Source: Flavobacteriales bacterium
GTDB lineage: Bacteria > Bacteroidota > Bacteroidia > Flavobacteriales_F > PHOS-HE28
Length of the DNA stretch: 64,000 bases
Direction of reading: 5' to 3'
Assembly (NCBI GenBank): GCA_039931265.1
Contig: JBDTSG010000001.1
Location: 4,521 to 68,520 of the forward strand
A program made the translations under genes and the position numbers. Of the stretch, positions 18,664 to 37,632 are shown one piece after another. The notes beneath the pieces were generated by a model. That model did not search any database and was not told the origin of the DNA. It saw only the letters and a program-made list of their open reading frames with translations. Each line of letters starts with the position of its first letter. Positions within the stretch are counted from its first letter, which is position 1.

Positions 18664-18680
18664 CCCGGAACGCATGCAAC

Positions 18681-18711
18681 GAAGAGCCTCCGGAAGGGGG
18701 CTCTTCCTTTT
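18681..18711 (+). terminator. Probable intrinsic terminator
   Basis: gaagagcctcc-ggaa-gggggctcttc followed by cttt. Confidence 0.7.
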
Positions 18712-18756
18712 GCCCCCAAACTGCCCCCTTCTTGATTGCTTTCTTTGACGCCCCAC

Positions 18757-19671
18757 ATGCAACGCAACGACTGGAAAACGCGCCTCTTCATGGCGGTGGA
18801 CCGAGCACATGGGCGGTTCAACAACCGGATCAAGGACCGTTGGCCTTTGTTGAGCGTATGGCTGTACCACAAACCCCGCTCGCGCTTCCTGCACTACCGG
18901 GTTGAGCGCGCCCTCATCGCTGGCAAGCCCTTGAACGTGGGCAAACGGCAGAGCATCGTGCTCTTCACGGTTGCCAAGGCTGCCAGTATGCACGTGCAGA
19001 AAATGGTTGGTACGCTCACCACCGGGCACGGCATGATCCCGGCCGACTTCAACGCGTACTTCAGCACGAGCAGCGGCAAGCTGTACGATCACTTCCACAA
19101 CACTTCTTCTTTGCAGCGCATGTTCCGGCCGCAAGGGTTTTTCTACGGCGCGCTGCGCACGTACTGCGCACTGCCACAACCCGATCGCTTCCGTGTCGTG
19201 GTCGTATTGCGCGATCCGCGCGATGTGCTCACCAGCCAGTACTACAGCCAGGCGTACAGCCACGCGATCATCAACGAGCGCATCGCTGAGCAACGGAAAA
19301 AAGTGTTGTCGCAGTCGATCGATGAGGCCGTGCTTGAAGAAGCACCGAAGCTCTTGGCCATCTACAACGACTACTTGCGCGAATACACCGGAAAGCCGTG
19401 GGCGCTGATTACCACTTACGAACGGATGATCGCCGATCACGCGACTTGGCTGAAGGGGATCGCAGCGCATTGCGGTCTGGACGGGCACCCTGACCTGGTG
19501 GAAAGGTTGGCCAAGGAGGGCATGCAGGTGAAGGGAAGCGGCGACAAGAACCAGCACGTTCGCGTTGGAAAGAGCGGCGACCACAAGAGCAAGTTGGCCC
19601 CTGCGACCGTGACCGAACTCGACCGCTTGTTCGGACGGATGTTGAGCAGTGCACCATGGGGAAACGATTAA
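18757..19671 (+). CDS. Sulfotransferase domain protein
   Basis: PAPS-site-like TVAKAAS, RDPRDVLTS.YYS, YE.M and H.R.G..GD motifs. Confidence 0.82.
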   Translation: MQRNDWKTRLFMAVDRAHGRFNNRIKDRWPLLSVWLYHKPRSRFLHYRVERALIAGKPLNVGKRQSIVLFTVAKAASMHVQKMVGTLTTGHGMIPADFNAYFSTSSGKLYDHFHNTSSLQRMFRPQGFFYGALRTYCALPQPDRFRVVVVLRDPRDVLTSQYYSQAYSHAIINERIAEQRKKVLSQSIDEAVLEEAPKLLAIYNDYLREYTGKPWALITTYERMIADHATWLKGIAAHCGLDGHPDLVERLAKEGMQVKGSGDKNQHVRVGKSGDHKSKLAPATVTELDRLFGRMLSSAPWGND

Positions 19672-19681
19672 TACCACGTCC

Positions 19682-20185
19682 ATGAACTCCGTCCCCGACC
19701 TTCTCCGCTCCTCTTCCATCAAACACTTGAGCGAAGGCCGTGAGCGTTTGCACAAGTGCGTGGGCATGCTCACCGAAGCCCAGGTCCGGCAGCGTGCGAA
19801 CGCGAACACGGCAAGCGTCGGCAACTTGGTGCTGCACCTCTGTGGCAACGTTGGCCAATGGATCAACAGCACGTTGGGCCGGCAGCCCGATCACCGCAAC
19901 CGCGATATCGAATTCAGCGATGCTGGTTCGCTGGACAAGTCGCAATTGCTCGAGCGGCTTGATGCAACGATGGCCACGGCCACGACCATCATCTCCGCGT
20001 TACCCGATGCCGACCTCACCAACACCTTCAAGGTGCAGATCTACGCGGAGACAGGCGCGGCCATCATCATGCACGTTACTGAGCACTTCAGCTACCACGT
20101 TGGACAAGTGACGCTGCACACCAAGCTGCTGCTCGATATCGACACCGGTTACTACGCTGGCCAAGACCTGAGCGCAAAGCCTTAG
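19682..20185 (+). CDS. DinB/DUF1572 family protein
   Basis: SVGNLVLHLCGN, R.RD.EF and EHFSYHVGQ motifs. Confidence 0.88.
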   Translation: MNSVPDLLRSSSIKHLSEGRERLHKCVGMLTEAQVRQRANANTASVGNLVLHLCGNVGQWINSTLGRQPDHRNRDIEFSDAGSLDKSQLLERLDATMATATTIISALPDADLTNTFKVQIYAETGAAIIMHVTEHFSYHVGQVTLHTKLLLDIDTGYYAGQDLSAKP

Positions 20186-20210
20186 TGCCGGCCTGCCCAG
20201 CAGACCTCAC

Positions 20211-22808
20211 TCACTCCGCAAGGAAGGCCTGCACCCATTGCCTGCCGTCCTGCAGCAAGCGCAATGCATACAATCCTTCCGACAGACCAGGCAGTGCGAT
20301 AACGCGCTGCGTTGAACCTCCTCCCAAGGTGCCCTGCACCATCACCTTTCCTTCCGCATCCAGCACTTCAAAACGGAAGTCCGCACCGCTTGCCGTTGTC
20401 GGAAGCTGCACGGTGAGGTAACCCGTGGTTGGCGACGGCCAGATGAGAATATCGCGCCTACCGGGTTGTTCCTGGATCCCGATGTTACCGAAGTAAAGTG
20501 TGTCGCTGATGGCGGTGCAGCCGTTCGCGTCGCTCACCTGCACTTGATAGTTGCCGTTCACCAGAACTTCGAGGTCTTGGTCCGTGGCTGACGTGATCGC
20601 GGTTCCTTCATAGAACCACTGGTATCCTGCGGCAGGTGTGGAAGTCAGGACGGTACCGTTCACAGTAATGTCGGGAACCGCGGGCAGCGGCAGCACAATG
20701 AACTCCAACGTGTCGCTATGTCCCGTACAGCCGCTTCCGTAGGTGACCTGCAGGCTCAACTGCCCCGATGTGCTCTGGTAAAGCTGCGCATCCGTTCCGC
20801 CATTGCTCCATGTGTACAGATCCACACCGGGCGGGCCGCTCACCACCACGCTATCCCCCATGCAGAATGCGGTATCGGCCGTGAGCTCAATGTTGCTCCC
20901 TGAGACTGCTGCGAACGCATCCACTTTGCCATGGCCCCATGCGTTGTTCGGCACAACACCCGTGAATTGATCGGTGTAAGCACTGCCGTTGATCGCGGCG
21001 ATCACCTCGGTATGGGTGGCCAACGAGCACTTTTCGAAATACAACGCTGCTGTACCCGCTACAACGGGGCTGGCCATGCTGGTGCCGGCATTGCGCATGT
21101 GCAGGCTGTCCTGGTGCACCTTCCACACGTTGGTGGGCTGGAGCAGCATGGCCGCCATGGTGCTCAACGGACCCGGGCTCATGGTGTAAGCACCGGTGGC
21201 ACTCAGATCGGGTTTCAGGTACCCCGTGCGTGTCGGCCCCTTACTACTGCTGGTGGCAAGCACGCCTTCAACCGGGGTAACGAAAACAGTGTCCTGGTTC
21301 GCGCCGATGTACCACATCTCGTTCATGTAGTTGGCAACCGTAAGGGTGTGCGGACTGCAAGCCCAACTGTCCACGACATGCTGATCGTTGTCGGGCAGTA
21401 TATAGTGCACAATGCTCGGCAGTGTCGATGCGCTCGGCAAGTTGGCGCTCACCTGGTAGCTCATCCAACCCGGCGCACCCACGCACCAACCATCGTGCAT
21501 TCCGGGGCCCGTGGTCATGAAGCGCCAGTTGAGGTCCGCGCTGTCCGGTGCCTCCATGTGCACTTCCAAATGGTACTGGCCTCCTCGTTGCTCCACGAAG
21601 AAATCAACGGTACCCAGCAGGTCCCCGTTGCTGTTCTCGATCGCATCGGTGAAGGTCATACCAACGTTGCTCAGCACATCGTGGAACGGTGAACTCCCCC
21701 GATCCGCGAAACTCAGCGTATCGAGGTTGGCGCCGAGCGCGTAATGCAGGTTCACCATTTGTGCGCTATCGCCCCACAGATCGAAGTAAACGGCAGGGTA
21801 GCCGAGGAAACTCTGCGGGTTGAGACGGTACCATGTGAAAGCCGTGTCAGCATCGCTCACGGTACGGGTGTGGTAGCCCGGCCAATCGCCACTGTTGCCT
21901 GCGGCGCATACCAGCATGCGCCCGGGCTCGGCATTGAGCATATCATCGATGAGCAACGCGGCCGCATCGAGGCCATCGTGACTTCCCAAGTAACTGCCAG
22001 CGCTCAAGTTCACCACAGCGGGCTGGCCCATGCTCTGCGCGTAATTGAAGATGTACTCCACACCATCCACCACCGTGCTGGGCCAGTCGGTCGCATTGAA
22101 ATTGCTGCTCACCACAACGATGTCCGCATCAGGCGCCACGCCTTTGCAGTTGCCGGTGAGCGAACCATCGCCTGCCGCTGCGCCCGTTACCGTGCTACCG
22201 TGGCCGAACGTGCCGGGTTGGTCGCTGGCGGGGCATTGCAGGGCATTGATCATGGTGCTGTCCCACTGCTGGCCGTAGTTGTACGGTTGCGGGGTCAGCA
22301 CCGCGTCGAACGCGTAGGTCTGTCCCCAGAACTTCATGATCCGAGCATCGCCGTTCGCATCCTGGAAATCGCCGTGGCGCCAATCGCAACCCTGATCGAT
22401 CACGCCCATCACAACGCCATCACCGGTATAACCTTGTGTAAGCGGCGCAACGCCCTGCTGTACCGGGTTCACGCGGTTGTGTACGCGCATGCTGTCGTTC
22501 ATGGCCACGCCCGGAAAGAGCGTGAACTCAATGCACTTCACCGCAGCATCCGCCGCCAGCTCGGCAACGTTGTCGGCCGGCACACGCACGTTCATGATGC
22601 CCTGCATCCTTTGTTTAACTGTTCCCCCCGCGCGCAGCACCGCACTGCCCAATGCCCCATCATCGCCGCGCAGGAACAGATCCACCATGGTGCCGGTGCC
22701 CTGCACGCGCTTCAGATGCGTGCGCAATTGCACGTTCATCTTCTGCGGCACTTGCGCAATGCAGGATGCAGCGAGAACGATCGAGAGGGCGAGCAGGAAA
22801 TGGCGCAT
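20211..22808 (-). CDS. S8 subtilisin-like serine peptidase with T9SS type A sorting domain
   Basis: Triad VIDQG / GHGS.VTG / GTSMASP, oxyanion AAGN, KPDL; C-terminal IWPSP...GLY.LRL. Confidence 0.93.
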   Translation of the reverse strand: MRHFLLALSIVLAASCIAQVPQKMNVQLRTHLKRVQGTGTMVDLFLRGDDGALGSAVLRAGGTVKQRMQGIMNVRVPADNVAELAADAAVKCIEFTLFPGVAMNDSMRVHNRVNPVQQGVAPLTQGYTGDGVVMGVIDQGCDWRHGDFQDANGDARIMKFWGQTYAFDAVLTPQPYNYGQQWDSTMINALQCPASDQPGTFGHGSTVTGAAAGDGSLTGNCKGVAPDADIVVVSSNFNATDWPSTVVDGVEYIFNYAQSMGQPAVVNLSAGSYLGSHDGLDAAALLIDDMLNAEPGRMLVCAAGNSGDWPGYHTRTVSDADTAFTWYRLNPQSFLGYPAVYFDLWGDSAQMVNLHYALGANLDTLSFADRGSSPFHDVLSNVGMTFTDAIENSNGDLLGTVDFFVEQRGGQYHLEVHMEAPDSADLNWRFMTTGPGMHDGWCVGAPGWMSYQVSANLPSASTLPSIVHYILPDNDQHVVDSWACSPHTLTVANYMNEMWYIGANQDTVFVTPVEGVLATSSSKGPTRTGYLKPDLSATGAYTMSPGPLSTMAAMLLQPTNVWKVHQDSLHMRNAGTSMASPVVAGTAALYFEKCSLATHTEVIAAINGSAYTDQFTGVVPNNAWGHGKVDAFAAVSGSNIELTADTAFCMGDSVVVSGPPGVDLYTWSNGGTDAQLYQSTSGQLSLQVTYGSGCTGHSDTLEFIVLPLPAVPDITVNGTVLTSTPAAGYQWFYEGTAITSATDQDLEVLVNGNYQVQVSDANGCTAISDTLYFGNIGIQEQPGRRDILIWPSPTTGYLTVQLPTTASGADFRFEVLDAEGKVMVQGTLGGGSTQRVIALPGLSEGLYALRLLQDGRQWVQAFLAE

Positions 22809-26370: not shown

Positions 26371-29124
26371 ATGAAGATGAAGCATCGTTCCTACGCATTG
26401 TTGCTACCAATGCTGCTGGCGGTCAGCGCGCGTGCCCAAGTAGTCGTGAACGAAGTAAGCGCCAGCAACCTGGCCACCGTGGCCGACAACTTCGGCGACT
26501 ACGACGACTGGGTGGAACTGTACAATACCACGGCGGCCCCTTATGACATCAGCGGCTGGTGGTTGAGCGACAACCCGAACACGCCCATGAAGTGGGCGCT
26601 CCCGGCCGGAACGATCGTTGGTGCCAATGCCCGGCTGATCATTTGGTGCAGCGGTCGTAACATTTCCGCTCCCGCCCTGCACACCAATTTCAAACTGAAC
26701 CAGACGAGCCAGGAATGGGTGGTGCTCAGCAACCCGGGTGGCACGGTGATCGACGATTTCCAATTGGCCCAACCGACCAAGGAGGATGACAGTTGGGGCC
26801 GCACCACGGACGGTGCCGCCACATGGAGCATTTTCACAACGCCCACGCCTACAACTGCGAACGCCGGGTCCGGTGCGTACTACGCGAACAAACCAGTGCT
26901 TAACCCTGCGGCCGGTTTCTACGCCGGTTCGCAGAACGTGAGCATCGCCCCCGTGGCCGGTAGCGATGTGCGGTACACCACCAACGGCACACTGCCCACC
27001 GCTACGAGCACGCTTTATTCCGGCCCCATCGCCGTTGGCGCCACCACGGTGATCCGCGCTGCAGCCTTCCCCACCGCTCCCGGGGTTCCGAGCAGCATGG
27101 TGGAAACGAACACCTACTTCATCAACAGCCCGCACACGGTTGCCGTGCTCAGCATCGCTGGCAACGACTTGAACGATCTGCTGCAGAACGGCAACCAGAT
27201 AAAGCCGATCGGTTCCTTCGAGTACTTCGGCCCAGATGGGGTCTTGCGCGATGAAGCGGTGGGCGAGTTCAACGAGCACGGCCAGGACAGTTGGGCGTAT
27301 GACCAACGTGGCTTCGATTACATCGTACGCGATGAGACCGGCTACAACGATGCCATCCACTACCCCGTTTTCCGCACGAAGCCCAGAGACAAGTTCCAGC
27401 GGTTGATCGTGAAGGCGCTTGCTGGCGATAACGTGGCATATGGTCCTGGCCAACCCGCCCACATCCGCGATCCCTATGTGCACGCGCTGAGCCAGACGGG
27501 CGACCTGAACTTGGATGAACGCAGCTACGAAGCCGCCGTCCTGTACCTCAACGGCGACTACTGGGGCGTGTACGACATGCGCGAGAAGGTGGACGATCAC
27601 GACTTCACCAGCTACTACTACGATCAGGACGAGAACAACATCCAGTTCATCAAGACCTGGGGCGGCACGTGGAGCGAGTACGGCGGGGCACAAGCCCAAA
27701 CGGATTGGGATGCGTTGCGCACGTTCATCGCCAGCAACAACATGGGCACCGTAGCCAACTTCAACTACGTGGACAGCCTCTACAACTGGCACAGTCTCAT
27801 CGATTACTTCTGCCTGAACAGCTATACGGTTTGCGCCGACTGGTTGAACTGGAACACCGCGTGGTGGCGTGGCCTCAACCCCGCTGGTGACAAGAAGAAG
27901 TGGCGCTATGCGCTCTGGGACGAGGACGCCACGTTCGGGCACTACGGCAACTTCACCGGCATTCCGGATCAGACTGCGAACGCGGATCCCTGCACCGTGG
28001 AGAATCTTGGCGACCCCGGTGGTCAAGGGCACACTTTGATCCTGCAGAAGTTGATCACCGAGAACCCGATGGTGCACGATTACTACATCAATCGATACAT
28101 CGACTTGGGCAACACCGTCTTCAATTGCAGCAACATGTTGGCGCTGCTCGACAGCTTCGTTGCCATCATCGATCCCGAAATGCCCGCACAATGTGCCCGG
28201 TGGCCGAACACTTCATACACCGACTGGCAGGCGAACGTGCAGGTGATGCGCGATTTCATCACTACGCGCTGCGTGACGATTGAGACCGGATTGGTCGATT
28301 GCTATGACCTCAGTGGGCCCTATGATGTGGTCTTCGATGTGGATCCGCCGCTCAGTGGCTCGATCCAGGTGAACAGCCAGTCGCTGCCCTCGTACCCCTT
28401 CACCGGCACGTACTATGGTGGTATCACCACCACCCTCGCGCCGATCCCGGCAACCGGATGGATCTTCAGCCATTGGACCATTGCCAACGATACCATCAGC
28501 CCCAGCACGCTCGATTCCCTGGTGACCGTCGATTTCGATGTGCCTGATAGCGTGGTTGCGCACTTCGTTCCACCCATCCGGTACGATGTGTACGTGGATG
28601 TGGACCCGCGTACCGGCGGGTATGTGCAGCTGGGCAACACGATCATCACGCAGTTCCCGCACATCGAGAGCGTCCCCAGCAGTGTACCGATGACATTGAA
28701 GATCTACCCCGCGGAGTTCCACGATTGGTTGTACTGGGAGATCCTGCACAACCCGATCACCCCGGACGATACGCTGCTACAAGAGGTGAGCATCACTTTC
28801 ACCAGTACCGATACGATCATCGCGCACCTCGATCCGCAGCAGCACGCCTACTACCTGCCCAATGCGTTCACACCGAACGGCGATGGCATCAACGATGTTT
28901 GGTACCCGGGTCAGCAGGTCGTGGATGCCGAGACGTACGATCTCATGGTCTTCAACCGCTGGGGCGAGGTTGTGTATGCGAGCAAAGATCCGTTCGAAGG
29001 TTGGGATGGCAGCGCCGGCGGCAGCACAGCGCCCAATGGCGTCTACGTTTTCAAGGCACACGTAGTGGATGCGATCAGCAAGGAGGACTACGATTTCACC
29101 GGGCACGTAACAGTGTTCAGGTAA
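26371..29124 (+). CDS. CotH kinase-family protein with lamin-tail-like domain and T9SS type B (gliding motility-associated) C-terminal domain
   Basis: VVNEV.ASN / DWVELYN N-domain; YLNG.YWGVY..REK, DW..WN and W.YALWD.D CotH motifs; PNAFTPNGDG.ND...FNRWG CTD. Confidence 0.9.
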   Translation: MKMKHRSYALLLPMLLAVSARAQVVVNEVSASNLATVADNFGDYDDWVELYNTTAAPYDISGWWLSDNPNTPMKWALPAGTIVGANARLIIWCSGRNISAPALHTNFKLNQTSQEWVVLSNPGGTVIDDFQLAQPTKEDDSWGRTTDGAATWSIFTTPTPTTANAGSGAYYANKPVLNPAAGFYAGSQNVSIAPVAGSDVRYTTNGTLPTATSTLYSGPIAVGATTVIRAAAFPTAPGVPSSMVETNTYFINSPHTVAVLSIAGNDLNDLLQNGNQIKPIGSFEYFGPDGVLRDEAVGEFNEHGQDSWAYDQRGFDYIVRDETGYNDAIHYPVFRTKPRDKFQRLIVKALAGDNVAYGPGQPAHIRDPYVHALSQTGDLNLDERSYEAAVLYLNGDYWGVYDMREKVDDHDFTSYYYDQDENNIQFIKTWGGTWSEYGGAQAQTDWDALRTFIASNNMGTVANFNYVDSLYNWHSLIDYFCLNSYTVCADWLNWNTAWWRGLNPAGDKKKWRYALWDEDATFGHYGNFTGIPDQTANADPCTVENLGDPGGQGHTLILQKLITENPMVHDYYINRYIDLGNTVFNCSNMLALLDSFVAIIDPEMPAQCARWPNTSYTDWQANVQVMRDFITTRCVTIETGLVDCYDLSGPYDVVFDVDPPLSGSIQVNSQSLPSYPFTGTYYGGITTTLAPIPATGWIFSHWTIANDTISPSTLDSLVTVDFDVPDSVVAHFVPPIRYDVYVDVDPRTGGYVQLGNTIITQFPHIESVPSSVPMTLKIYPAEFHDWLYWEILHNPITPDDTLLQEVSITFTSTDTIIAHLDPQQHAYYLPNAFTPNGDGINDVWYPGQQVVDAETYDLMVFNRWGEVVYASKDPFEGWDGSAGGSTAPNGVYVFKAHVVDAISKEDYDFTGHVTVFR

Positions 29125-29142
29125 CACACGACCGATCCGATC

Positions 29143-29169
29143 GAACGCCCCGACTTGTTCGGGGCGTTC
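29143..29169. terminator. Hairpin between convergent genes
   Basis: gaacgccccga-cttgt-tcggggcgttc. Confidence 0.7.
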
Positions 29170-29197
29170 TTCATTTCAGGCCTTGTATACGTGGCGC

Positions 29198-29560
29198 TCA
29201 CCACAAGTCGCGCCCGAACAGCCGCAGCGTCATAACGGTGAAACCGATGTAAGTGCCATCGCGGCGTTCCTCCACCGGATAGGTCGCCGCGTTGCCACCA
29301 TCGTGTTGCTTGCCCCGACCTGTCACCAGATCATAGTGGTATAAGTGCCGGGGGCAAACGATGCAGCCTTCGTCTATCCTTCCTCCGGCGAGTGACTCCC
29401 CGTGGTGCGGGCACTTCTCCTCCAATGCATGGAGCGCTCCCTTCCAACGGACCAGTATCAGTTGCTTGCCGTTCACCGCACAGCGCATGGGCCTGCCCTC
29501 AGCAACAGGTGCCGATGTACCAGCGGGAAGTTTGCTCCAACGGATGCGGTCAACGAGCAT
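29198..29560 (-). CDS. Rieske 2Fe-2S ferredoxin-type protein
   Basis: CPH...CPRH ligand pair and YDL.TG. Confidence 0.88.
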   Translation of the reverse strand: MLVDRIRWSKLPAGTSAPVAEGRPMRCAVNGKQLILVRWKGALHALEEKCPHHGESLAGGRIDEGCIVCPRHLYHYDLVTGRGKQHDGGNAATYPVEERRDGTYIGFTVMTLRLFGRDLW

Positions 29561-29565
29561 GGGCT

Positions 29566-31695
29566 TCAGCGCGCCAAGATGAACGCTCCTTGCCTACGTA
29601 CATCGTGGCAATGGATCGCGTGCTCCTCGCACCAGCGGCGAACGTACCTCCTACTACCGAGTTCCATATCGGGTGCCAGCACAACATGTTGCGGAGCATG
29701 CAGGGCCATGAGTTGTTCCACCTCGAAGCGGCCGGGACCATGCAGCACAAGCACATCCAAAGGGAACGGCTGCCCTTGTTCCATGGATGTGTTCTCTCCG
29801 CGTTGATCCACCGGGCCGGCAGAAGCAAGGCGCACACGCAGATCACCGCTGCACCACAGCCCACCTCGGTGCACGGAGGTTCCTGTGCTTGTGGGAAAAG
29901 AATCGCTCACCGCCGAGGAAGTGACGGACCGGATGGTTTCCAAACCCCACTTCCGCACATGCGCATCAATGCGACGGCGCGCGTAAGCATCCGTTGCCGT
30001 TACGCTGTCCTCCATTACATCGATCTCCCGGCCGTGTACCATGGCCGCAAGCACCCCATCGCGATAGTCGTACACCACGAAGGCATCGCGATCCATGGTC
30101 GCATCAATGCGTTGGTACCAACCGATGAAGAGGATCAAAGCATATGCGGCCATCAACCATTTCACTCGGCGCCATTGCCATGCGACCATCGCCGATGCGA
30201 TGAAGATCAGTGCATAAAGCAGGGTACACTGCCAGCCGTCCATGCGGATCGCCGGGTATGCACCAGGCAGTTTGCCGAACCATTGCGCAGCTGCGCCCAT
30301 GAGCCACAACAGGAACTCCAGCACCCACTGTATGCACTCGCCCAATAGGGGTACATGCCCGAAGACCAATGCAACAATGCCTACGATGACAGCGGCGCTG
30401 CTGGCAGTTACCACCAATAGGTTGGCGGGCAGGAACCATGTGGGGAAGGCGCCGAACGCCCACAGCGACAATGGCGTGGTCATGAGCTGCGCGGCTACCG
30501 TAACGCTCAATGCCGACCAGATGAAATGCAGAACAACGTTGGGGGGCGACCACAACCGCATGAACGGTTTGTAGAAGAGGATGATGCCGAGTACCGCCAT
30601 GAACGAAAGCTGGAAACTCAGCTGCACCAGCATGGACGGATCCCATATCAGCAACAGGAAGGCGGCGGTGCTGAGGCTGTTCATCGGTTCGTTCTGCAAG
30701 CCGCGCATGTCGCTCACCGTGAACATGCTGAACATGATGGCAGCGCGTACGATGCTCGGCGACCAACCGGTGAGGCCGGTGAACGCCCACAACGAAGCCA
30801 GTACGAGTGTACCACGCGTCAGACGCGCCCATGTCCTCCTGCCCCACCAGCCCATCAGTTGCATCAGGATCCAATAGATCAGACCCACGTGCATGCCGCT
30901 CACCGCCAGCACGTGCATGGTCCCGCTGCGCGCAAAGGCATCGCGCTGTTCCGTGTCGATGTCGCTCCTGACGCCGAGGATCAGCGCCTTCACCAAACCC
31001 TTCTCGCGTGGCGCAATATCAAGCGCGTCGAACCATCCCGCAACGTTGGTTCGCCACACCTCGAAGAACGAAAAGAACGGCGGATCGTACGCGACACGCA
31101 TCCAGTTGCCGCTCTCAACGAACGCCTCGTGGAAGATCCCTTGCGAGCCCGCCCACTGTCCGCGATCGAAACCGCCCGGGTCGGCCACGCGATCAATGCG
31201 GTTCACCGGGGCGCGGATAGCGATGCGGTCACCTGTCCGCAATCCTTCGGACAAGCTATCGCGGCGCACCATCAACAGCACCCCACCCCGTGTTACTTCA
31301 CCACCGCTGCTGTCCAGCCAAGCCTCAGCGTCGGCCTTGCAGCGTACCACGCTCGGCGAAAGCCCAGTGACTTCCGTAATGTCCACGAGCAGCGGGCGAT
31401 GCTGGTCGGGCGCCACCACCAACCGATGCGGATCGTTGCCCGGCGCCCGCAGTGTCTGCCACAGCAACCCGAAGCCGAATGCGAAACACAAGAATGCCGC
31501 GCCGCGCCACCAGCGCCGGGCATATCGGCGCACCTGCCAGACGAGCAGGACCGTCAACAGCAGTGCACCGCACACGGCCCAAGCACTGGCCAAGTTGAGT
31601 TGCGCCGTGCGCGCGTAGGCCAGGCCCCCGATAAAAGGCAACACGGCCCGCAAAGCAGGCGAACGAATAACATCGCTCCAGGGACCTTTGACCAT
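29566..31695 (-). CDS. comEC: ComEC/Rec2 family competence protein
   Basis: P.GFD, G..HVLAVSGMHVG, S..RAA.M and SFQLSF.AV motifs. Confidence 0.92.
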   Translation of the reverse strand: MVKGPWSDVIRSPALRAVLPFIGGLAYARTAQLNLASAWAVCGALLLTVLLVWQVRRYARRWWRGAAFLCFAFGFGLLWQTLRAPGNDPHRLVVAPDQHRPLLVDITEVTGLSPSVVRCKADAEAWLDSSGGEVTRGGVLLMVRRDSLSEGLRTGDRIAIRAPVNRIDRVADPGGFDRGQWAGSQGIFHEAFVESGNWMRVAYDPPFFSFFEVWRTNVAGWFDALDIAPREKGLVKALILGVRSDIDTEQRDAFARSGTMHVLAVSGMHVGLIYWILMQLMGWWGRRTWARLTRGTLVLASLWAFTGLTGWSPSIVRAAIMFSMFTVSDMRGLQNEPMNSLSTAAFLLLIWDPSMLVQLSFQLSFMAVLGIILFYKPFMRLWSPPNVVLHFIWSALSVTVAAQLMTTPLSLWAFGAFPTWFLPANLLVVTASSAAVIVGIVALVFGHVPLLGECIQWVLEFLLWLMGAAAQWFGKLPGAYPAIRMDGWQCTLLYALIFIASAMVAWQWRRVKWLMAAYALILFIGWYQRIDATMDRDAFVVYDYRDGVLAAMVHGREIDVMEDSVTATDAYARRRIDAHVRKWGLETIRSVTSSAVSDSFPTSTGTSVHRGGLWCSGDLRVRLASAGPVDQRGENTSMEQGQPFPLDVLVLHGPGRFEVEQLMALHAPQHVVLAPDMELGSRRYVRRWCEEHAIHCHDVRRQGAFILAR

Positions 31696-31886
31696 CTTGG
31701 ATATCGTGCGATCGGCGAAGGCCGAAGCACATCATTACCATCCGATCCGGAAATACCCTGTTCACGGTATTTTTTCGGGGGTTCGCGCTGTGCTATCATC
31801 CGATCGCCCAGCACGCTGGGGTCCTCCCGAGCGCACCTGTCGGTCTAGAGCGCTGGCCCGCCTCTGCACAATGCGACTCCGTTGTG

Positions 31887-32049
31887 CGACCCCACCGGGG
31901 TCGGATACCACGTTGGGCTTGGTCATTCTAATTTCTGCGACCCCGCTGAGGTCGCGGACCTCCACAGAATTTGACCCCGAAGGGGTTCAAGGGATCAGAA
32001 CAAGTGAGCACGACGATGCTGCCTTTCGACCCGCCGTACGGCGGGGTCG
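31887..32049. repeat. Array of four GACCCC-n-GGGGTC hairpins (REP/BIME-like)
   Basis: cgaccccaccggggtcg (31887), gcgaccccgctgaggtcgc (31937), ttgaccccgaaggggttcaa (31971), cgacccgccgtacggcggggtcg (32027). Confidence 0.8.
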
Positions 32050-32092
32050 CAGAACTGCGTTGTCGCGAGGCGCAAAGACGTTACACCCAACC

Positions 32093-33283
32093 TCACACCA
32101 CCTGCAAAATGTGGCACTTGAGGTAGTGCGTCTCCGGCGCGCCCCATAGCACGGGATGGTCGGGCGGCTGGTTGCCAGTGTACACCTCGCGTAACTGCTT
32201 GCCGGCATCGCGGGCAGCATCGGAAATGGTCTTTTGGAAGAGTTCAGGCCCCATGTGGAAGGAGCACGAGCACGTTACGAGGAAGCCTCCTGTGTGCAGG
32301 CACTTCAGCGCGCGCAGGTTGATCTCCTTGTAACCACGTACCGCGTTCTCCAAGGCGCTCTTGCTCTTGGCAAAGGCGGGCGGGTCGAGCACGATCACAT
32401 CCCACAGCTTGTTGTTGCGGCTGGCATCCGTTAGGAAGTCAAAGACATTGGCTGCTTGGAAGGTGCAACGTTCCTGCAAGCCGTTCAGCTGGGCATTGCG
32501 GTTGGCCAAGGCAACGGCATCCTCGCTGATATCCAAGCCCAGCACGTCGCGCGCGCCGTGGTACGCGGCGTGCAGTGCGAAACCGCCCGTGTGCGTGAAA
32601 CAGTCGAGCACGCGGGCGCCGGCCGAGATGGGCGCCATGGCGGCATGGTTGCGCATCTGATCGAGGAAGTGCCCGGTCTTCTGGCCGGTGGCCACGTCCA
32701 CCTCCATGCGGATGCCGTTCTCGTTGATCACCAAGCGCGTTGGGAAGTCGGCACCCAAAGGGCCCTTGTGCTGCACCATGCCTTCCTTCTCGCGCACGGC
32801 CACATCGTTGCGCTCGTAGATCCCACGCGGTTTGAAGAGCGCGCGCAGCTCGTCCGCCACCACGTCTTTCCAACGCTCCATGCCCAAGGCAAGGGTTTGG
32901 ATGCTCAGCACGCATTCGCTGGGCGCATCGGCATCGTTGAACTTGTCCACGATGAGGGCCGGCAGCCCATCGCTTTCGCCGAAGACCACGCGGCAGCTGC
33001 CCGTGTAGCCCAGCCGTTGGCGGTGCAACCATGCATTGCGGATGCGGTGCCGGATGAAGCCCTCGTCCACGCGCACATCCATGCTGCGGGTGAACAGCCG
33101 CACGCGGATCACGCTTTTCGGATTGATGAAGCCCTGGCCGATCGGCCCTTTCTTCACATCCACCACCTCAACCACATCACCGGGCTCGAAGTCGCCTTCG
33201 CTCCGCAGCACCTGGCTGTCGAAGATCCACGGATGGCCGCCCAGCACTCGGCGATGCGGATCGGTGATGTAGATGCGGGCCAT
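32093..33283 (-). CDS. rlmI: RlmI-type class I SAM-dependent rRNA methyltransferase
   Basis: PUA-like GHPWIF, ESDGLP, GQKTG.FLDQ, LDCF.HTGGF, LDPPAF, TCSCS and YLK motifs. Confidence 0.9.
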   Translation of the reverse strand: MARIYITDPHRRVLGGHPWIFDSQVLRSEGDFEPGDVVEVVDVKKGPIGQGFINPKSVIRVRLFTRSMDVRVDEGFIRHRIRNAWLHRQRLGYTGSCRVVFGESDGLPALIVDKFNDADAPSECVLSIQTLALGMERWKDVVADELRALFKPRGIYERNDVAVREKEGMVQHKGPLGADFPTRLVINENGIRMEVDVATGQKTGHFLDQMRNHAAMAPISAGARVLDCFTHTGGFALHAAYHGARDVLGLDISEDAVALANRNAQLNGLQERCTFQAANVFDFLTDASRNNKLWDVIVLDPPAFAKSKSALENAVRGYKEINLRALKCLHTGGFLVTCSCSFHMGPELFQKTISDAARDAGKQLREVYTGNQPPDHPVLWGAPETHYLKCHILQVV

Positions 33284-33414
33284 GGTCGGGGGCTGTGGAA
33301 ACGCGGAAGATGTGAGGATGAAAACGGCGCGCCGCGAAGATGCGGGTTGATGGTGCTCTGAAGTGAACGGTTCCTGGCTTCGGTCTTGGGCTTGAGGTGG
33401 GCCAAAGACTTAAG

Positions 33415-33493
33415 GTCACTCGCCACAGGCGAGCGACAGTCCGCGCGATCCGAGCGGATGCGGGGCTGGCTCGCGCGCTAAAGCCGAGCTAGC
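33415..33493. repeat. Clustered REP-like hairpins
   Basis: gtcactcgcc-aca-ggcgagcgac (33415-33437) and gctggctcg...cgagctagc (33465-33493). Confidence 0.55.
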
Positions 33494-33511
33494 GCTGGGA
33501 CTACCGACCGG

Positions 33512-34045
33512 TCAATGCTTGGCCCATCTGCCCTCGATGTAATCTTGGTTAAGTGAGCATCCATCTTTGTTCATGAGGCCGTCATCCACAAACCGGCCAA
33601 GAATGTGCTCTTCAAGGTACTTGGAGTCCAGTCTTTCACGGAGTTGAGCATCTCGCGTGGACAAGTGGAAATTCGGGGCATCGCCACGAACAAAGACCCA
33701 TCCTGAATCGTCTCTTAGAGTAGCGAGGTATACTGTACCGTAGCCATTTCTACTGCCGTTCTCCAGATCGTAAATCTCCAACTCCATCGCAATCGCTTTC
33801 GTCCTGTCACTATTGAAAAGGACATTCCCTCCGGCTACGCGCTCAACGACGCCAGAGCTATCAACTGGTCTACTATCAATACGCTGATTGAATGCATGCA
33901 ATAGGGTTTGGTAGCTCTGTTCAGCACGGAGCGAACCTGTAGCTTCCCCGATACACTTTAGCGCCTTTACCTTAGAGTTGCATCCAATCAACAGAAGAGA
34001 CACGCACCCAAAGCAAACCGCGATCAACTGATTCGAGCACCACAT
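33512..34045 (-). CDS. Orphan putative lipoprotein with atypical, AT-richer composition
   Basis: 177-aa ORF; hydrophobic N-region ending in lipobox-like LIGC; frequent A/T-ending codons unlike neighbours. Confidence 0.7.
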   Translation of the reverse strand: MWCSNQLIAVCFGCVSLLLIGCNSKVKALKCIGEATGSLRAEQSYQTLLHAFNQRIDSRPVDSSGVVERVAGGNVLFNSDRTKAIAMELEIYDLENGSRNGYGTVYLATLRDDSGWVFVRGDAPNFHLSTRDAQLRERLDSKYLEEHILGRFVDDGLMNKDGCSLNQDYIEGRWAKH

Positions 34046-34048
34046 GGG

Positions 34049-34159
34049 TTAATTGTCTTTTCCCCCAACATAAGCTCGTATGGTTCCTTTGCTCTGACAA
34101 TCCCCTTCGCTTTGCAGCACCTGGCGGTGCGGGTCGGTGATGTAGATGCACGCGGGCAT
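34049..34159 (-). pseudogene. Remnant of rlmI 5' end fused to foreign sequence (36-codon mini-ORF)
   Basis: Translates MPACIYITDPHRQVLQSEGD-CQSKGTIRAYVGGKDN*; compare RlmI MARIYITDPHR[12 aa]QVLRSEGD. Confidence 0.8.
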
Positions 34160-34162
34160 GTC

Positions 34163-35386
34163 CTATCGCTCGCCAGCATTGAACGTGGCAGGCGAAGTAC
34201 CGGGCGCGGGTTCCTCGGGCACCAGGCTTTCATCCCGGAAGAAGTCCAGCGCGCTCAGGTCCACCAGATGCACATCGGTATAATAGTGGTGCAGGATGTC
34301 CGTGTAGTTCATGCCCGTGAGTGCCATGTGCATGGCTCCTTCCTGGCAGAGCCCTACCCCATGTCCGAACCCGCGACCTTCCAACAACACGTTCTCGCCG
34401 GTGGTATGGATCGAGAAGAAGCCACTGTTCAACTTCCAGTCGTGGCGCACATCTTCCAGCGGCACCGCAGGTTGCACATTGGGAAGGTAGAATGTGCGGC
34501 GGTGCGGTTCCATGCTCAGCGCACCGGCAATGGCTGCCGTATCCGTTGTGTTCACCTTCCACTTTTTCTGGAGGTACGCCAACCACTCCGCCTTGCCGAT
34601 GGTCCTGCTCCACACCGCATGCGGCTCGTGCATGCAAAAGGAATCCGTTACGGCACGGAGATAGGGCTCGGGCTTGCTCCACACATCCTCGCAGTTCAAG
34701 GTCTCGCCGCCGCAGTTGCTATGGAAGGTGGCGTGGATCAGCTTGATGCCCGCATCCACGAGCACCATGTCCTCCGTGGCCGCAACGGCCGCAACGATAT
34801 CCGGGTTCAGGGTCTTGCCTTGGTACACCTGGCAATGCACGCCGTCGCACACTTCAAAGCCTTCGGGCAGGTGCTTGCGGATATTCGTGAGCGCATAGGT
34901 GCGGCAGGTGACCGCCTGCAGTTTGTAGTACTCGGCGCAATGGTCCTTGCCGGCCTCGCTCTGGATCACGCCCGCCGTGTAGTCCTCCATGCCCACGTGG
35001 TTGGTGAGTTTTAACCGCGTTCCGCTGCGGTCCACGCGCAGATGTCCGGGATAGGTACGTTCCGCCAGTTTGCTGTCGAGCACTTTCAAGCGGAAGTTGC
35101 TCTGCGGGACTTTCTGCACCAACTCGATGTACTGCGCTGTGAAACTCGCTGCCAACGACTTCGCTTGCAGCTTTCCCGCCACCACTTCCACACGCAACCC
35201 GTCGTTGCTGAGCAGTTCGCCGGCTTTCTTCCCATCCGCCATGATGTTGTAGCCGCCCCCGGCGCTCAGCACCACAATGCGTTCCACCGGCCGATCACGG
35301 AGTATGCCCACGCGTAGCGAACGCTCTTGGGCGACGGACGCGACCTGCGCTACGCACAAGAGGATGAAAAGGAAGAGGCTGCGCAT
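34163..35386 (-). CDS. SpoIID/LytB domain protein
   Basis: E.Y..GV...E, K.QAV..RTY, CD..HCQVY.G, FHSNCGG and G.GFGHGVGLCQEGA motifs; signal peptide. Confidence 0.93.
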   Translation of the reverse strand: MRSLFLFILLCVAQVASVAQERSLRVGILRDRPVERIVVLSAGGGYNIMADGKKAGELLSNDGLRVEVVAGKLQAKSLAASFTAQYIELVQKVPQSNFRLKVLDSKLAERTYPGHLRVDRSGTRLKLTNHVGMEDYTAGVIQSEAGKDHCAEYYKLQAVTCRTYALTNIRKHLPEGFEVCDGVHCQVYQGKTLNPDIVAAVAATEDMVLVDAGIKLIHATFHSNCGGETLNCEDVWSKPEPYLRAVTDSFCMHEPHAVWSRTIGKAEWLAYLQKKWKVNTTDTAAIAGALSMEPHRRTFYLPNVQPAVPLEDVRHDWKLNSGFFSIHTTGENVLLEGRGFGHGVGLCQEGAMHMALTGMNYTDILHHYYTDVHLVDLSALDFFRDESLVPEEPAPGTSPATFNAGER

Positions 35387-35421
35387 GACGGCCGCGAAAC
35401 TACCGGCGGGTGTTGCCGTGC

Positions 35422-36543
35422 TCAGGCAACGCCGTTCAGACTTTTCCACACGCCATCGGCAACTCGTGCCGAAGCACCCGCACCACCGAGGACGTGCAGC
35501 AGGTCGGCCATGTCCCGATGCATGTCCCGGATGTACTCCTCGTCGTGCAGCAGGCGTTCCAACTCCGCGCTCAGCACGCGCTCGTTCATGTACTCCTGGA
35601 TCAGCTCCTGCACCACGGGCTTGTCCATGATGAGGTTCACCAAGCTGATGTACTTCACCTTCACCAACCGTTTTGCCAACCATACGTTCACCGCGCTGCC
35701 TTTGTAGCATACCGCCATGGGAACGCCGAACAAGGCCGTCTCCAGTGTGGCCGTGCCGCTGGTGACCAACGCCGCCTTCGACTTCCGTAGCACGCCGTAC
35801 GTGTCGCCGATCACCAGCTGCGCATCGGAGCCCTTCATCATCTCCTCGTAGTAGCTGCGCGGAACGCTCGGCGCAGCGGCCACCACGAAGCGCTCGCCCG
35901 GAAAGCGTTTCGCCACGTCCAGCATCACCGGCAACATGGTGCCGATCTCCTGTCGTCGGCTGCCGGGAAGCAATGCGACCTCACCCCCCTGCCCCCTCTT
36001 CCAAGGAGAGGGGGAGGTTAATACCGTGCTGCCGGAGATCTCGTCCAACAACGGATGCCCTACGAACTCCGCGTCCATGCCGTACTGCGCATAGAACTCC
36101 TTCTCGAAGGGCAGGATGGTGAACATGCGGTCCACCACCCGCTTGATCTTGTGGACGCGTCCTTTCTTCCATGCCCAGATCTGCGGGCTGATGTAGTACA
36201 GCACCTTGATGCCTTGCTCATGTGCCCACTCGGCAATGCGCAGGTTGAAGCCGGGATAGTCGATGAGCACCAAGGCATCCGGTTTCCATTCTGCGATGTC
36301 CTCCTTGCAGACACTGATGTTCCTAAGGATCGTGCGCAGGTTCATCACTACTTCGGCGAAGCCCATGAAGGCGAGCTCGCGGTAGTGCTTCACGATGTGC
36401 GCACCTTCCGCTTGCATGCGATCGCCGCCCCATGCCCGCACTTCTATCGTTGGATCTTTCGCGCGCAGCGCCTTGAGGAAGTTGGCCCCGTGCAGATCGC
36501 CGCTGGCCTCGCCCGCTATCACGTAAAGGCGCTTGCCGCTCAT
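35422..36543 (-). CDS. lpxB: Lipid-A-disaccharide synthase
   Basis: AGEASGDLHG, IDYPGFN, SPQIWAW, ILPFE, VGHPL, LLPGSR and SGTATLE motifs. Confidence 0.97.
   Translation of the reverse strand: MSGKRLYVIAGEASGDLHGANFLKALRAKDPTIEVRAWGGDRMQAEGAHIVKHYRELAFMGFAEVVMNLRTILRNISVCKEDIAEWKPDALVLIDYPGFNLRIAEWAHEQGIKVLYYISPQIWAWKKGRVHKIKRVVDRMFTILPFEKEFYAQYGMDAEFVGHPLLDEISGSTVLTSPSPWKRGQGGEVALLPGSRRQEIGTMLPVMLDVAKRFPGERFVVAAAPSVPRSYYEEMMKGSDAQLVIGDTYGVLRKSKAALVTSGTATLETALFGVPMAVCYKGSAVNVWLAKRLVKVKYISLVNLIMDKPVVQELIQEYMNERVLSAELERLLHDEEYIRDMHRDMADLLHVLGGAGASARVADGVWKSLNGVA
35978..36018. repeat. Palindromic repeat element lying in frame within lpxB
   Basis: acctcacccccctg-ccccctct-tccaagg-agaggggg-aggt hairpin encoding TSPSPWKRGQGGEV. 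Confidence 0.7.
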
Positions 36544-36869
36544 AGCCAGCCCAGCTTGCTGAGTTCATCGTAAGCGATCACCGGTACGATGTAGAGGCCA
36601 TAGGCGATCATTGCCGTGATCACACCCCGCATGGCTTTGTGGTGACCACCACGATCGAACACGAAGAAGAGCGCGGCATCGGCAATGAGGCTCAACGACA
36701 CGATCTGTGTGCGGTATTCGCTCGTACCGAGGAACAGGTCGTTGACGAACCAGGACATGTCGTGGTTCGGCCGTATGCCGGTGGTATAGATGAGGCCGTA
36801 GCCGAAGAACCCGAAGACCGGGAAGATGAGACCGAGGACGAAGCCGATACCGAACCGGTCAATGCGCAT
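36540..36869 (-). CDS. Hypothetical small membrane protein
   Basis: Three hydrophobic segments; overlaps the surE stop and lpxB start (operonic). Confidence 0.75.
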   Translation of the reverse strand: MRIDRFGIGFVLGLIFPVFGFFGYGLIYTTGIRPNHDMSWFVNDLFLGTSEYRTQIVSLSLIADAALFFVFDRGGHHKAMRGVITAMIAYGLYIVPVIAYDELSKLGWL

Positions 36870-37632
36870 GATCCCATGTGTTCAACTCCGCGATGGCATG
36901 GTGCGCCGTCATGTCGAACTGCACCGGTACAACGCTCGCATAGCCATTGTGCGTGGCCCACACATCAGTGTCCTCGCCATGATCCAGATCCTTGAAACGG
37001 CCCTTCAACCAGTAGTAGTCCTTGCCCATGGGATCGCGGCGCGCTTCGAAGTCATCCTCCCAGTTTCCCCATGCTTGGCGGCACACGCGCACACCTTTCA
37101 GCGGTTCGCCACTTTCCTTCGGAACGTTCACGTTGAGGCACGCACCCTTGGGGATCCCGTGCTTAAGTGCATTGGACGTTACGCTGCGCACGATCGGCCG
37201 CACGCGCCCGAAGTCGGCGTCGATGCTATGGTCCATGAGGGAGAAGCCGATGCTCGGTATCGCTTCCAGAGCACCTTCCACCGCCGCGCTCATGGTGCCG
37301 CTGTACAACACATTGATGCTGATGTTGCTGCCGTGGTTGATCCCACTCACCAATAGCGCGGGCTTGCCCTTGATCACTTCGTAGATGGCCAGCTTCACGC
37401 AATCCACCGGCGTACCGCTACAGGCGTACGCCTCCACTCCTTCCAGCAGGTCCACCTTCTGCAAGCGCAGGTAATGGTGTATGGTGATCGCATGGCCCAT
37501 GGCGCTCTGCGGCTTGTCCGGCGCCACCACGAGCACGCGGCCGAAGGCCTTCATCTCCTCCGCCAACGTGCGGATGCCCGTGGCTGTAATGCCATCGTCG
37601 TTGGTGACCAGAATGAGGGGTTGTCGATCCAT
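36859..37632 (-). CDS. surE: 5'/3'-nucleotidase SurE
   Basis: ILVTNDDG, VVAP...QS, GTPVDCV, SGINHG.N and YSGT motifs. Confidence 0.97.
   Translation of the reverse strand: MDRQPLILVTNDDGITATGIRTLAEEMKAFGRVLVVAPDKPQSAMGHAITIHHYLRLQKVDLLEGVEAYACSGTPVDCVKLAIYEVIKGKPALLVSGINHGSNISINVLYSGTMSAAVEGALEAIPSIGFSLMDHSIDADFGRVRPIVRSVTSNALKHGIPKGACLNVNVPKESGEPLKGVRVCRQAWGNWEDDFEARRDPMGKDYYWLKGRFKDLDHGEDTDVWATHNGYASVVPVQFDMTAHHAIAELNTWDHAH

Follow-up and report, generated by a model that had tools for sequence, protein, structure and literature searches.

A displaced rlmI start beside a foreign lipoprotein gene in a Flavobacteriales bacterium: probably an ordinary recombination scar

The DNA analysed here, a stretch of 64,000 nucleotides from a Flavobacteriales genome (hereafter the window; the source genome is G000), holds two copies of the start of the rRNA methyltransferase gene rlmI, separated by a predicted lipoprotein gene of foreign origin. 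On balance, the locus is probably the scar of a horizontal gene insertion that came about by one-sided homologous recombination combined with illegitimate recombination, rather than through a mobile element. Two findings back this reading: a sister species has the empty site, and genome G003 offers a second, independent case for which a donor-type allele is known. Neither a novel class of mobile element nor a novel regulatory system is indicated by the locus, which is best understood as an ordinary scar of recombination. It is a clean natural example of how a housekeeping gene of the essential type can take up a foreign gene within its first codons and come to no harm. Scars of this type are useful markers of recombination-driven gene gain in uncultured Bacteroidota, and annotators are warned that short open reading frames (ORFs) behind operon genes may be displaced gene starts.

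Anatomy of the locus and the copied rlmI start

Sequence and ORF reading placed every element where a sequence-only reading of the window had located it, on the minus strand:

34163..35380, minus strand: spoIID-like gene, 405 aa with the start codon adopted here; stop codon TAG at 34165-34163; PF08486 match (E 3e-18)
34049..34159, minus strand: stub, a 36-codon ORF with its ATG at 34159 and its TAA at 34051-34049
34159-34100, minus strand: rlmI-derived part of the stub (its first 60 nt), read as the displaced native rlmI start
34046..34099, minus strand: AT-richer foreign leader, from the rlmI-derived part of the stub to the lipoprotein ATG; the GC drop starts here
33512..34045, minus strand: cargo lipoprotein ORF, 177 aa, ATG at 34045; GC ~0.48; without a Pfam family
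33284..33511, minus strand: spacer of 228 nt with genome-like GC; perfect 10-bp hairpin at 33415-33437
32093..33283, minus strand: intact rlmI, 396 aa; the second start copy is its first 93 nt, 33283-33191

Three nucleotides lie between the spoIID stop and the stub ATG, and another three between the stub TAA and the ATG of the cargo. These coordinates, together with a drop in GC content (0.48-0.49 over 33600-34099 vs. 0.58-0.69 in spoIID and rlmI), bear out the earlier description of a stub that runs into foreign DNA and stops just ahead of an AT-richer lipoprotein gene. The distance from that gene to intact rlmI, previously put at about 230 nt, was measured as 228 nt. In the genus, the gene most often found upstream of rlmI is spoIID.

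A repeat search recovered a 35-nt block of 89% identity at a spacing of 873 and a 28-nt block of 86% at a spacing of 909, and the difference between the two spacings implies that 36 nt are absent from the stub copy. Global alignment of the stub copy (60 nt) with the rlmI start (93 nt) opened a single 36-nt gap (z = 12.1; 0 of 2000 shuffles equalled the score). The deletion falls between two GTGCTG motifs, so the claim that the stub is a diverged rlmI start minus 12 codons between such motifs holds. In-register agreement was 11/15 nt past the second GTGCTG and 4/15 past the first; freed from the register constraint, the second block was not significant (p ~0.14). The two copies also differ by a 3-nt indel. 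Searched against the 4.3-Mb genome, the stub copy had the rlmI start as its only other match (E 5.6e-6 and 0.037). The gap alignment places the window junction at about nt 96 of rlmI, that is, at codon 31-32. The functional rlmI starts with M-ARIY; it has no Pro codon, and Arg replaces the Cys seen in the stub and in the closest relative, G131. Since the native start is retained, the stub is probably still translated.

The source genome is a metagenome-assembled genome of 155 contigs from rhizosphere samples, repeats may mislead assemblers, and in G005, a genome described below, the contigs break within the equivalent spacer. It could thus be asked whether two strains or loci were joined by the assembler. 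Against such an artefact, one Logan contig of 3783 nt (run X1) spans 32000-34815 with 0 differences, and contigs of runs X2 and X3 cross the spoIID/stub, second copy/spacer and spacer/cargo junctions, also with 0 differences; the stub/cargo 5' junction is spanned by the X1 contig only. X1 is possibly the source sample and the three runs come from one study, so that this support is not fully independent. We consider misassembly extremely unlikely.

The empty site and the rarity of the cargo

Comparison of the spoIID-rlmI region across relatives yielded an empty site in G131, whose rlmI has 90% amino acid identity to that of the window. There, the spoIID TAG is followed by 3 nt and the rlmI ATG, the protein begins with MPAC, and no insert is present. 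Because G131 rlmI has both the spacing and the MPAC start of the stub, the stub is taken to be the old native start of rlmI. The proposal that DNA had entered the 5' end of rlmI and that the gene was restored by a second copy is supported by this empty site and by the presence of the cargo in only 1 of 131 genus genomes. A same-strand spoIID lies upstream of rlmI at 62 genus loci, and in 18 of these the gap is 10 nt or less or the genes overlap, according to a crude measure that left the spoIID stop unplaced in 3 of the 18. Tight spoIID-rlmI junctions are thus common in the genus, which argues that the position of the stub is ancestral.

Long spoIID-rlmI gaps were also considered as sites of variable cargo, and this was rejected. 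Most of these gaps are occupied by a conserved opposite-strand gene, its ORF being present in most of the listed gaps of 1.4-3 kb, and from their gene content they are an ordinary synteny difference. The opposite-strand gene reads by eye as a putative ThrE-like exporter.

From the second start onward, rlmI aligns over its full length with G131, G133 and G001 (74-92% identity per 100 nt); the species differ by ~15-20% in DNA. Sliding identity over rlmI gave no clear mosaic boundary, and the site patterns within rlmI were uninformative. Among metagenome contigs queried with rlmI, one locus was recovered, with a G001-like empty arrangement and no duplicate; a scan of genome contigs with an rlmI alignment gave 13 genus loci only, the remaining 67 being mostly Firmicutes. 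At the start of the gene, the base states GCG, TGC and GAC are present in the stub and in G131, and absent from the functional copy, G133, G001 and G048. The state TAC is common to the stub and the functional copy and occurs in none of the four relatives (G131, G133, G001, G048), a pattern suggestive of gene conversion or of a donor very closely related to the recipient.

Identical data also fit a reversed timing, in which the common ancestor with G131 had stub, cargo and spacer, and recombination between the rlmI starts later removed cargo and spacer from G131, which would then be a deletion product and no original empty site. The G131 gene is stub-like over its first ~27 nt (GCG, TGC, GAC) and resembles the functional copy from ~nt 30 (CAT, GTGCTGGGCGG), which is the expected product of a crossover between the two rlmI-start copies, and the divergence of the copies is similar to that of the species (86-89% vs. 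~84% identity). Loss in G131 would, however, make the 3-nt distance between stub and spoIID coincidental, while tight junctions are widespread in distant members of the genus and hence ancestral, and it has to accommodate a cargo found in no other genus genome. We therefore regard reversed timing as unlikely.

The cargo is a predicted bacterial lipoprotein. Its N-terminus has a hydrophobic signal and the lipobox LLIGC at residues 18-22, as judged by eye, and Gly-Cys-Asn-Ser-Lys is invariant in 4/4 sequences of the homologue alignment. Close homologues numbered three only (66-74% identity) among 5.8 billion proteins, and six cluster representatives among 1.84 billion matched at E 0.001 or better. 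The sole carrier is the source genome, whether counted among 131 genus, 132 order or 401 sampled class genomes, the order-level set being one genome larger than the genus set. A donor lineage for the cargo was not found in the 130 other genus, 131 other order and 400 other sampled class genomes, and the viral contigs searched held no relative. By its GC content and these counts, the cargo is foreign and rare. The top ESM Atlas scores (0.76 and 0.75, for unnamed Bacteroidota clusters) are below the useful range, and an AlphaFold2 model built from the 4-sequence alignment reached a mean pLDDT of 53, too low to support a fold search.

The cargo seems to have come with its own leader. About 20 nt ahead of the cargo ATG, the leader carries TTATGTTGG, a candidate promoter-like motif and a near match to TAnnTTTG, which we take to be the Bacteroidota -7 promoter motif. 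A sigma-70 promoter scan returned 0 sites; its consensus is unsuited to Bacteroidota.

A second case and the route of insertion

Duplicated rlmI starts were found in 2 of 120 genus genomes, G000 and G003. The G003 stub comprises the rlmI upstream motif and 15 codons (54/62 nt identical), adjoins an unrelated lipoprotein unit, and stops 15 nt ahead of the ATG of its cargo. In G005, a sister species of G003, rlmI is immediately preceded by the same cargo and its 81-nt leader at 95-98% identity, the lipoprotein unit itself matching at 97-98%. No stub is present there, and the G003 stub's stop codon is altered. Alignments of G003 with G005 show homology beginning precisely where the rlmI stub ends, with ~2 shared bases at the junction as we read it. 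As G005 has the G003 cargo unit beside rlmI, the donor-type arrangement exists. Similarity of the G003 stub to rlmI past its junction was not significant (p ~0.40). The idea that both stubs end at one codon was rejected, given a window junction near nt 96 (codon 31-32) and a G003 junction at codon 15. A genome-wide filter for similar 5' duplications gave 150 matches and was too lax; a stricter one gave 10.

The anatomy, the empty site, the foreignness and rarity of the cargo and the lack of a nearby tyrosine recombinase are observed; donor, succession of events and route are our inference. In the ancestral state, rlmI stood 3 nt past the spoIID stop, an arrangement that G131 retains. The incoming fragment would have derived from a related lineage in which the AT-richer lipoprotein gene and the spacer already lay upstream of the lineage's own rlmI. 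On its right side it would have been integrated by homologous recombination inside rlmI, and on its left side by an illegitimate join to the resident rlmI near nt 96. In the outcome, the first ~32 codons of the resident gene remain behind the spoIID stop as the stub, from which the 36 nt separating its GTGCTG repeats were later deleted, and the incoming 5' end and spacer now head a chimeric, intact rlmI. Translational coupling between cargo and stub, if any, would be a by-product. The recombination event is old, with copies that are now 86-89% identical.

Homology-facilitated illegitimate recombination, in which a homologous anchor on one side is combined with an illegitimate join on the other, is known from transformable Acinetobacter, Streptococcus pneumoniae and Pseudomonas stutzeri. 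The window resembles it in that conserved rlmI can act as the anchor, non-homologous cargo lies beside it and a remnant of the recipient gene is left; in G003, the far-end junction with its ~2 nt of shared bases is a further likeness. Unlike the process as described, the present locus is known from sequence alone, and of the transformation genes it has ComEC only. The ComEC gene lies next door, a weak context for natural transformation.

Two papers propose a recombination route to account for the leftover gene fragments found at T6SS and Rhs loci (PMC3240628; PMC5361080). In the Rhs/CDI/T6SS effector-immunity loci, as one of these papers describes, incoming DNA recombines in the conserved part of a gene and the displaced old part persists as a fragment (PMC5361080). 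The displaced fragment in the window likewise adjoins a new intact gene, as orphan modules do. Those loci have a 5' anchor, displaced 3' ends and immunity genes, often in arrays, and concern toxin genes, whereas at rlmI the 5' end was displaced, in a single event, in a housekeeping rRNA methyltransferase gene.

The architecture, in which the native 5' end is displaced and the restored gene has acquired different upstream DNA, would also fit a decayed site-specific integrative element, inserted at the 5' end of rlmI with a replacement 5' end and promoter, the two rlmI starts representing attL and attR. The duplicated start in a second lineage (G003) is in line with this as well. SXT provides prfC with a different promoter and 5' coding end, and at SXT/R391 insertions in prfC, as here, a conserved gene is interrupted in its first codons and remains functional. 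SXT is conjugative, encodes a tyrosine recombinase and has attP and attB sites that are nearly identical (PMC2791158); its size is ~100 kb (PMC2654960). The rlmI insert, unlike SXT, is 0.9 kb long, with a single gene that lacks a Pfam family, and its repeats are diverged (86-89%, with indels and no identical core), although an old event could have blurred att repeats. Tyrosine recombinases were searched as PF00589. Neither the window contig nor the G003 rlmI contig (C3) has a match; the two matches in G000 are on C54 and C28, and those in G003 on C2 and C4. The integrase part of the earlier statement that neither integrase nor transposase is present thus stands as far as tyrosine recombinases are concerned. 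In addition, the insertion positions are unlike (codon 31-32 in the window, 15 in G003), G003 is accounted for by the G005 comparison, and no empty-site joints or circle junctions were seen in contigs of the three runs of one study, an assembly product that drops rare variants. An integrative element is accordingly quite unlikely, and recombination anchored in rlmI remains our preferred reading.

A transposon or insertion sequence does not fit either: no inverted repeats pair the insert ends, the lone ORF has no Pfam family, and the duplicated target is ~60-96 nt long and diverged.

The sequence-only reading had further proposed that the leftover start may act as a relay plugging variable cargo into a housekeeping operon. 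In such a relay, the stub would be kept as an upstream ORF coupled to spoIID and would hand translation to the cargo by termination-reinitiation, with the rlmI start as docking point for variable surface-protein genes. Upstream ORFs and termination-reinitiation coupling do occur in operons, and the short ORFs here, as in such coupling, close to a following start codon come to their end, at a distance of 3 nt in the window (after 36 open codons) and of 15 nt in G003. In 6 of 120 genomes, moreover, the gene immediately upstream of rlmI belongs to one of three unrelated lipoprotein families (G000; G003 and G005; G024, G072 and G141). However, in G024, G072 and G141 the lipoprotein gene lies on the opposite strand, and G005 has cargo and leader with the stub absent and the stop codon altered. 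The short distance from junction to ATG would make a nearby stop likely by chance, and the cargo leader has a candidate promoter-like motif of its own. With stubs in 2 of 120 genomes, differing junctions (codon ~31 vs. 15) and a stub-free G005, the relay proposal finds little support, and we judge it very unlikely. It is also improbable in our view that in this genus the rlmI start is a recurrent docking point where small surface-lipoprotein genes are swapped in by recombination anchored in the conserved gene, and that joins falling within rlmI leave the native start, along with its promoter or operon context, as an upstream ORF that drives or tunes the newcomer.

The spacer and the restored rlmI

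The spacer must supply or relay transcription for the restored rlmI. A hairpin cluster had been described there; the hairpin is real (one perfect 10-bp stem), but the cluster is only modest, the fold of 237 nt having z = -2.0 and being equalled by 7 of 200 shuffles. No terminator-like site was called in the hairpin region, no repeats of the spacer were found elsewhere in the genome, and Rfam gave nothing at E 0.1 or better over 29000-37000. Likeness of the spacer to spoIID-rlmI spacers of relatives was weak (z 2.7 for G133 and 2.3 for G001).

Both domains expected of an RlmI-type 23S rRNA m5C methyltransferase are present in the predicted product of intact rlmI, namely PF17785 (PUA-like; E 2.3e-18, residues 11-66) and PF10672 (SAM methyltransferase; E 1e-19). 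A conserved GHPW motif directly follows the replaced N-terminal codons.

The displaced copy of the rlmI start and the gene behind it

The rlmI locus, with LpxB and SurE genes upstream and a ComEC gene downstream, carries an unusual arrangement between spoIID and rlmI. A 36-codon ORF (the stub) opens directly behind spoIID, followed by the gene of a predicted lipoprotein (the cargo) and a spacer.

Features of the rlmI locus
35380..34163, minus strand: SpoIID-domain gene (PF08486), TAG stop at 34165-34163
34159..34049, minus strand: stub, 36-codon ORF, ATG at 34159, 3 nt past the spoIID stop
34045..33512, minus strand: cargo, 177-aa ORF with signal peptide and lipobox, ATG at 34045, 3 nt past the stub TAA
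Between cargo and rlmI, minus strand: spacer, 228 nt, genome-like GC
33283..32093, minus strand: rlmI, PUA and SAM-methyltransferase domains

GC content is 0.48-0.49 over ∼34100 to 33600, compared to 0.58-0.69 in the flanking genes. A repeat search returned two blocks, of 35 nt (89%, spacing 873) and 28 nt (86%, spacing 909), and the spacings differ by 36 nt. Global alignment of the 60-nt copy with the first 93 nt of rlmI gave a single 36-nt gap (z 12.1, 0 of 2000 shuffles as high), with agreement at 11 of 15 nt past the second GTGCTG and 4 of 15 past the first. Hence the stub is rlmI-derived up to about rlmI nt 96, minus a stretch deleted between two short direct repeats. This confirms the diverged, gapped copy of the rlmI start that the sequence-only reading had placed between spoIID and the lipoprotein gene; genome-wide, the rlmI start is its sole match.

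Misassembly was assessed by junction coverage in sequencing runs X1, X2 and X3, all from a single rhizosphere study; X1 is possibly the source sample itself. A 3783-nt Logan contig from X1 spans 32000-34815 with zero differences, small contigs from X2 and X3 likewise match exactly across three of the four junctions, and no joint skipping the insert was seen in the contigs of the three runs. As far as checkable, the assembly holds.

The cargo matches no Pfam family, and clues to its function are scarce, with a poor structure model and low Atlas scores. It is a real gene: a search of 5.8 billion proteins gave three homologues, 66-74% identical, each with the lipobox and well conserved. At E 0.001 or better, six proteins (cluster representatives) were found among 1.84 billion. 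Carriers are rare: 1 of 131 genus genomes, 1 of 132 from the order and 1 of 401 sampled from the class, each time the genome of the window itself, and none was found in viral contigs.

An empty site and the probable ancestral junction

Among the 131 species genomes of the genus, 120 gave an rlmI match. The closest relative, G131 (rlmI 90% identical at the amino-acid level), lacks the insert: its spoIID TAG is followed by 3 nt and the ATG of an rlmI beginning MPAC. The stub has the identical 3-nt spacing and MPAC, and shares with G131 three base states absent from the functional rlmI start and from three other relatives (G133, G001 and G048). The functional start is without the Pro codon and has Arg, like the other relatives. 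The stub is thus what remains of the native rlmI start at its original position, and the proposal that DNA was inserted and the 5' end restored by a second copy is supported.

The same data would also fit an insert that G131 lost when the two rlmI starts recombined. By a crude gap measure, the 62 loci with a same-strand spoIID upstream of rlmI comprise 18 with a gap of ≤10 nt or an overlap (3 of them unresolved), 15 with 11-100 nt, 11 with 101-1000 nt and 18 with >1000 nt. From this distribution a tight spoIID-rlmI junction is most likely ancestral, which favours gain in the genome of the window over loss in G131.

Spacers measure 426 nt in G133 and 102 nt in G001. The G133 spacer (L136/L244) contains short tandem repeats of CACATCT and CGACTCA type, and a hairpin resembling that of the window spacer, with one compensatory pair change. 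Many loci of the genus (e.g. L175, L207, L208, L221, L232, L162, L054) have a conserved CTACCTTCGC-like motif 5-10 nt ahead of the start codon of rlmI, even in loci whose spoIID stop is just ∼20 nt away; the motif may act as a promoter or in translation. In this order, rlmI (window 32093-33283, loci L057-L123) is closer to proteins from Clostridia and other Firmicutes (42-56% identity) than to the best hits from other families within its class (32-38%), which may reflect an old gene transfer.

A second duplicated start and the relay proposal

A second rlmI start upstream of rlmI was sought in 119 genus genomes, reaching 1.5 kb upstream in 20 and up to 3.5 kb in 99 (less where contigs end); the 4-kb flanks of 13 loci were scanned additionally, and G005 was checked by hand. 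Only two genomes stand out, that of the window with a score of 50 and G003 with 84; the best of the others reaches 32. G003 has two copies of a 62-nt stretch at a spacing of 1094 nt (54 of 62 identical), comprising the conserved upstream motif, here again CTACCTTCGC-like, the ATG and 15 codons, and a 39-aa stub stops 15 nt ahead of an unrelated 268-aa lipoprotein gene. The sequence-only reading had pointed to relatives as the place to seek empty sites, or other cargo behind the same junction. G131 provides the former and G003 different cargo, but the junctions differ, lying after codon 15 in G003 and at about codon 31-32 in the window.

G005, a sister species of G003, has the same lipoprotein gene (97% amino-acid, 98% DNA identity) directly upstream of rlmI, together with the G003-type 81-nt leader (95%) and spacer; its rlmI-upstream region holds no stub and no T9SS-tailed gene. 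G003 equals G005 plus 2.1 kb ending in the rlmI stub. A perfect 20-nt direct repeat (L054 1042-1061 and 2939-2958) brackets most of this segment, enclosing 1.9 kb that contain the rlmI stub and a DUF5122 gene whose product has a T9SS sorting tail; in G005 the repeat occurs once and the 1.9 kb are absent. Homology between the two genomes begins exactly at the end of the stub, with about two bases shared. To judge from these sequences, G003 looks like an unequal, illegitimate join of two alternative rlmI-upstream arrangements.

In L009 (G024, 690-1514), L220 (G072) and L138 (G141) the gene immediately upstream of rlmI, on the opposite strand, belongs to a third unrelated lipoprotein family (52-58% identity among its three members); in G024 and G072 it sits between spoIID and rlmI.

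Since the stub retains the native start, 3 nt past the spoIID stop, it is probably translated; its own stop lies 3 nt ahead of the cargo ATG. The suggestion that its translation is handed to the cargo, plugging variable genes into a housekeeping operon, nevertheless finds no support: G005 has no stub, the cargo leader bears a promoter-like motif of its own, and a nearby stop is unsurprising because the distance from junction to ATG is short. A weak version of the variable-cargo idea survives in that 6 of 120 genomes have a lipoprotein gene from one of three unrelated families immediately upstream of rlmI.

Proposed mechanism and a similar locus

The locus has no sign of a dedicated mobile element. 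The claim that no integrase is present agrees with the lack of a tyrosine-recombinase match on the contig of the window, as on the G003 rlmI contig; the insert holds a single ORF with no inverted repeats at its ends, the spacer has no repeat elsewhere in the genome, and Rfam gave no match. Most simply, the rlmI-upstream region of a relative would have been imported with rlmI itself as the homologous anchor, and the other end of the imported DNA joined illegitimately inside the resident rlmI. Such a pattern is named homology-facilitated illegitimate recombination (PMC3240628), and has been invoked to explain displaced remnants found at T6SS and Rhs loci (PMC5361080). The window spacer only weakly resembles those of G133 and G001. 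No donor of the cargo was found among the 130 other genus, 131 other order and 400 other sampled class genomes, and rlmI gives no clear mosaic signal because the lineages are too diverged. SXT/prfC-type integration (PMC2791158) has an outcome resembling this locus, but three of the four membership tests came out negative; for the fourth, an excised circle or an empty site within the population, the contigs of the three runs showed no such joints, although contigs drop rare variants. The locus is best read as another example of an already known type of recombination scar.

A scan of the same genome with crude ORF rules yielded 10 candidate direct repeats in which a gene start lies displaced ahead of the complete gene. 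One is similar to the rlmI case: on contig C29 (∼18574-20260, plus-strand coordinates) an intact glycosyltransferase-like gene is preceded, 1656 nt upstream, by a decayed duplicate of its first ∼60 codons, and a 449-aa ORF occupies the interval.

A ∼390-nt block rich in hairpins (window 31700-32092), with several GCGACCCC...GGGGTCGC-type stems, lies between comEC and rlmI. It falls in an alignment gap at the equivalent place in G131 and G133, with no counterpart there, and a 24-40-nt piece of it is found again at 6 other sites in the genome.
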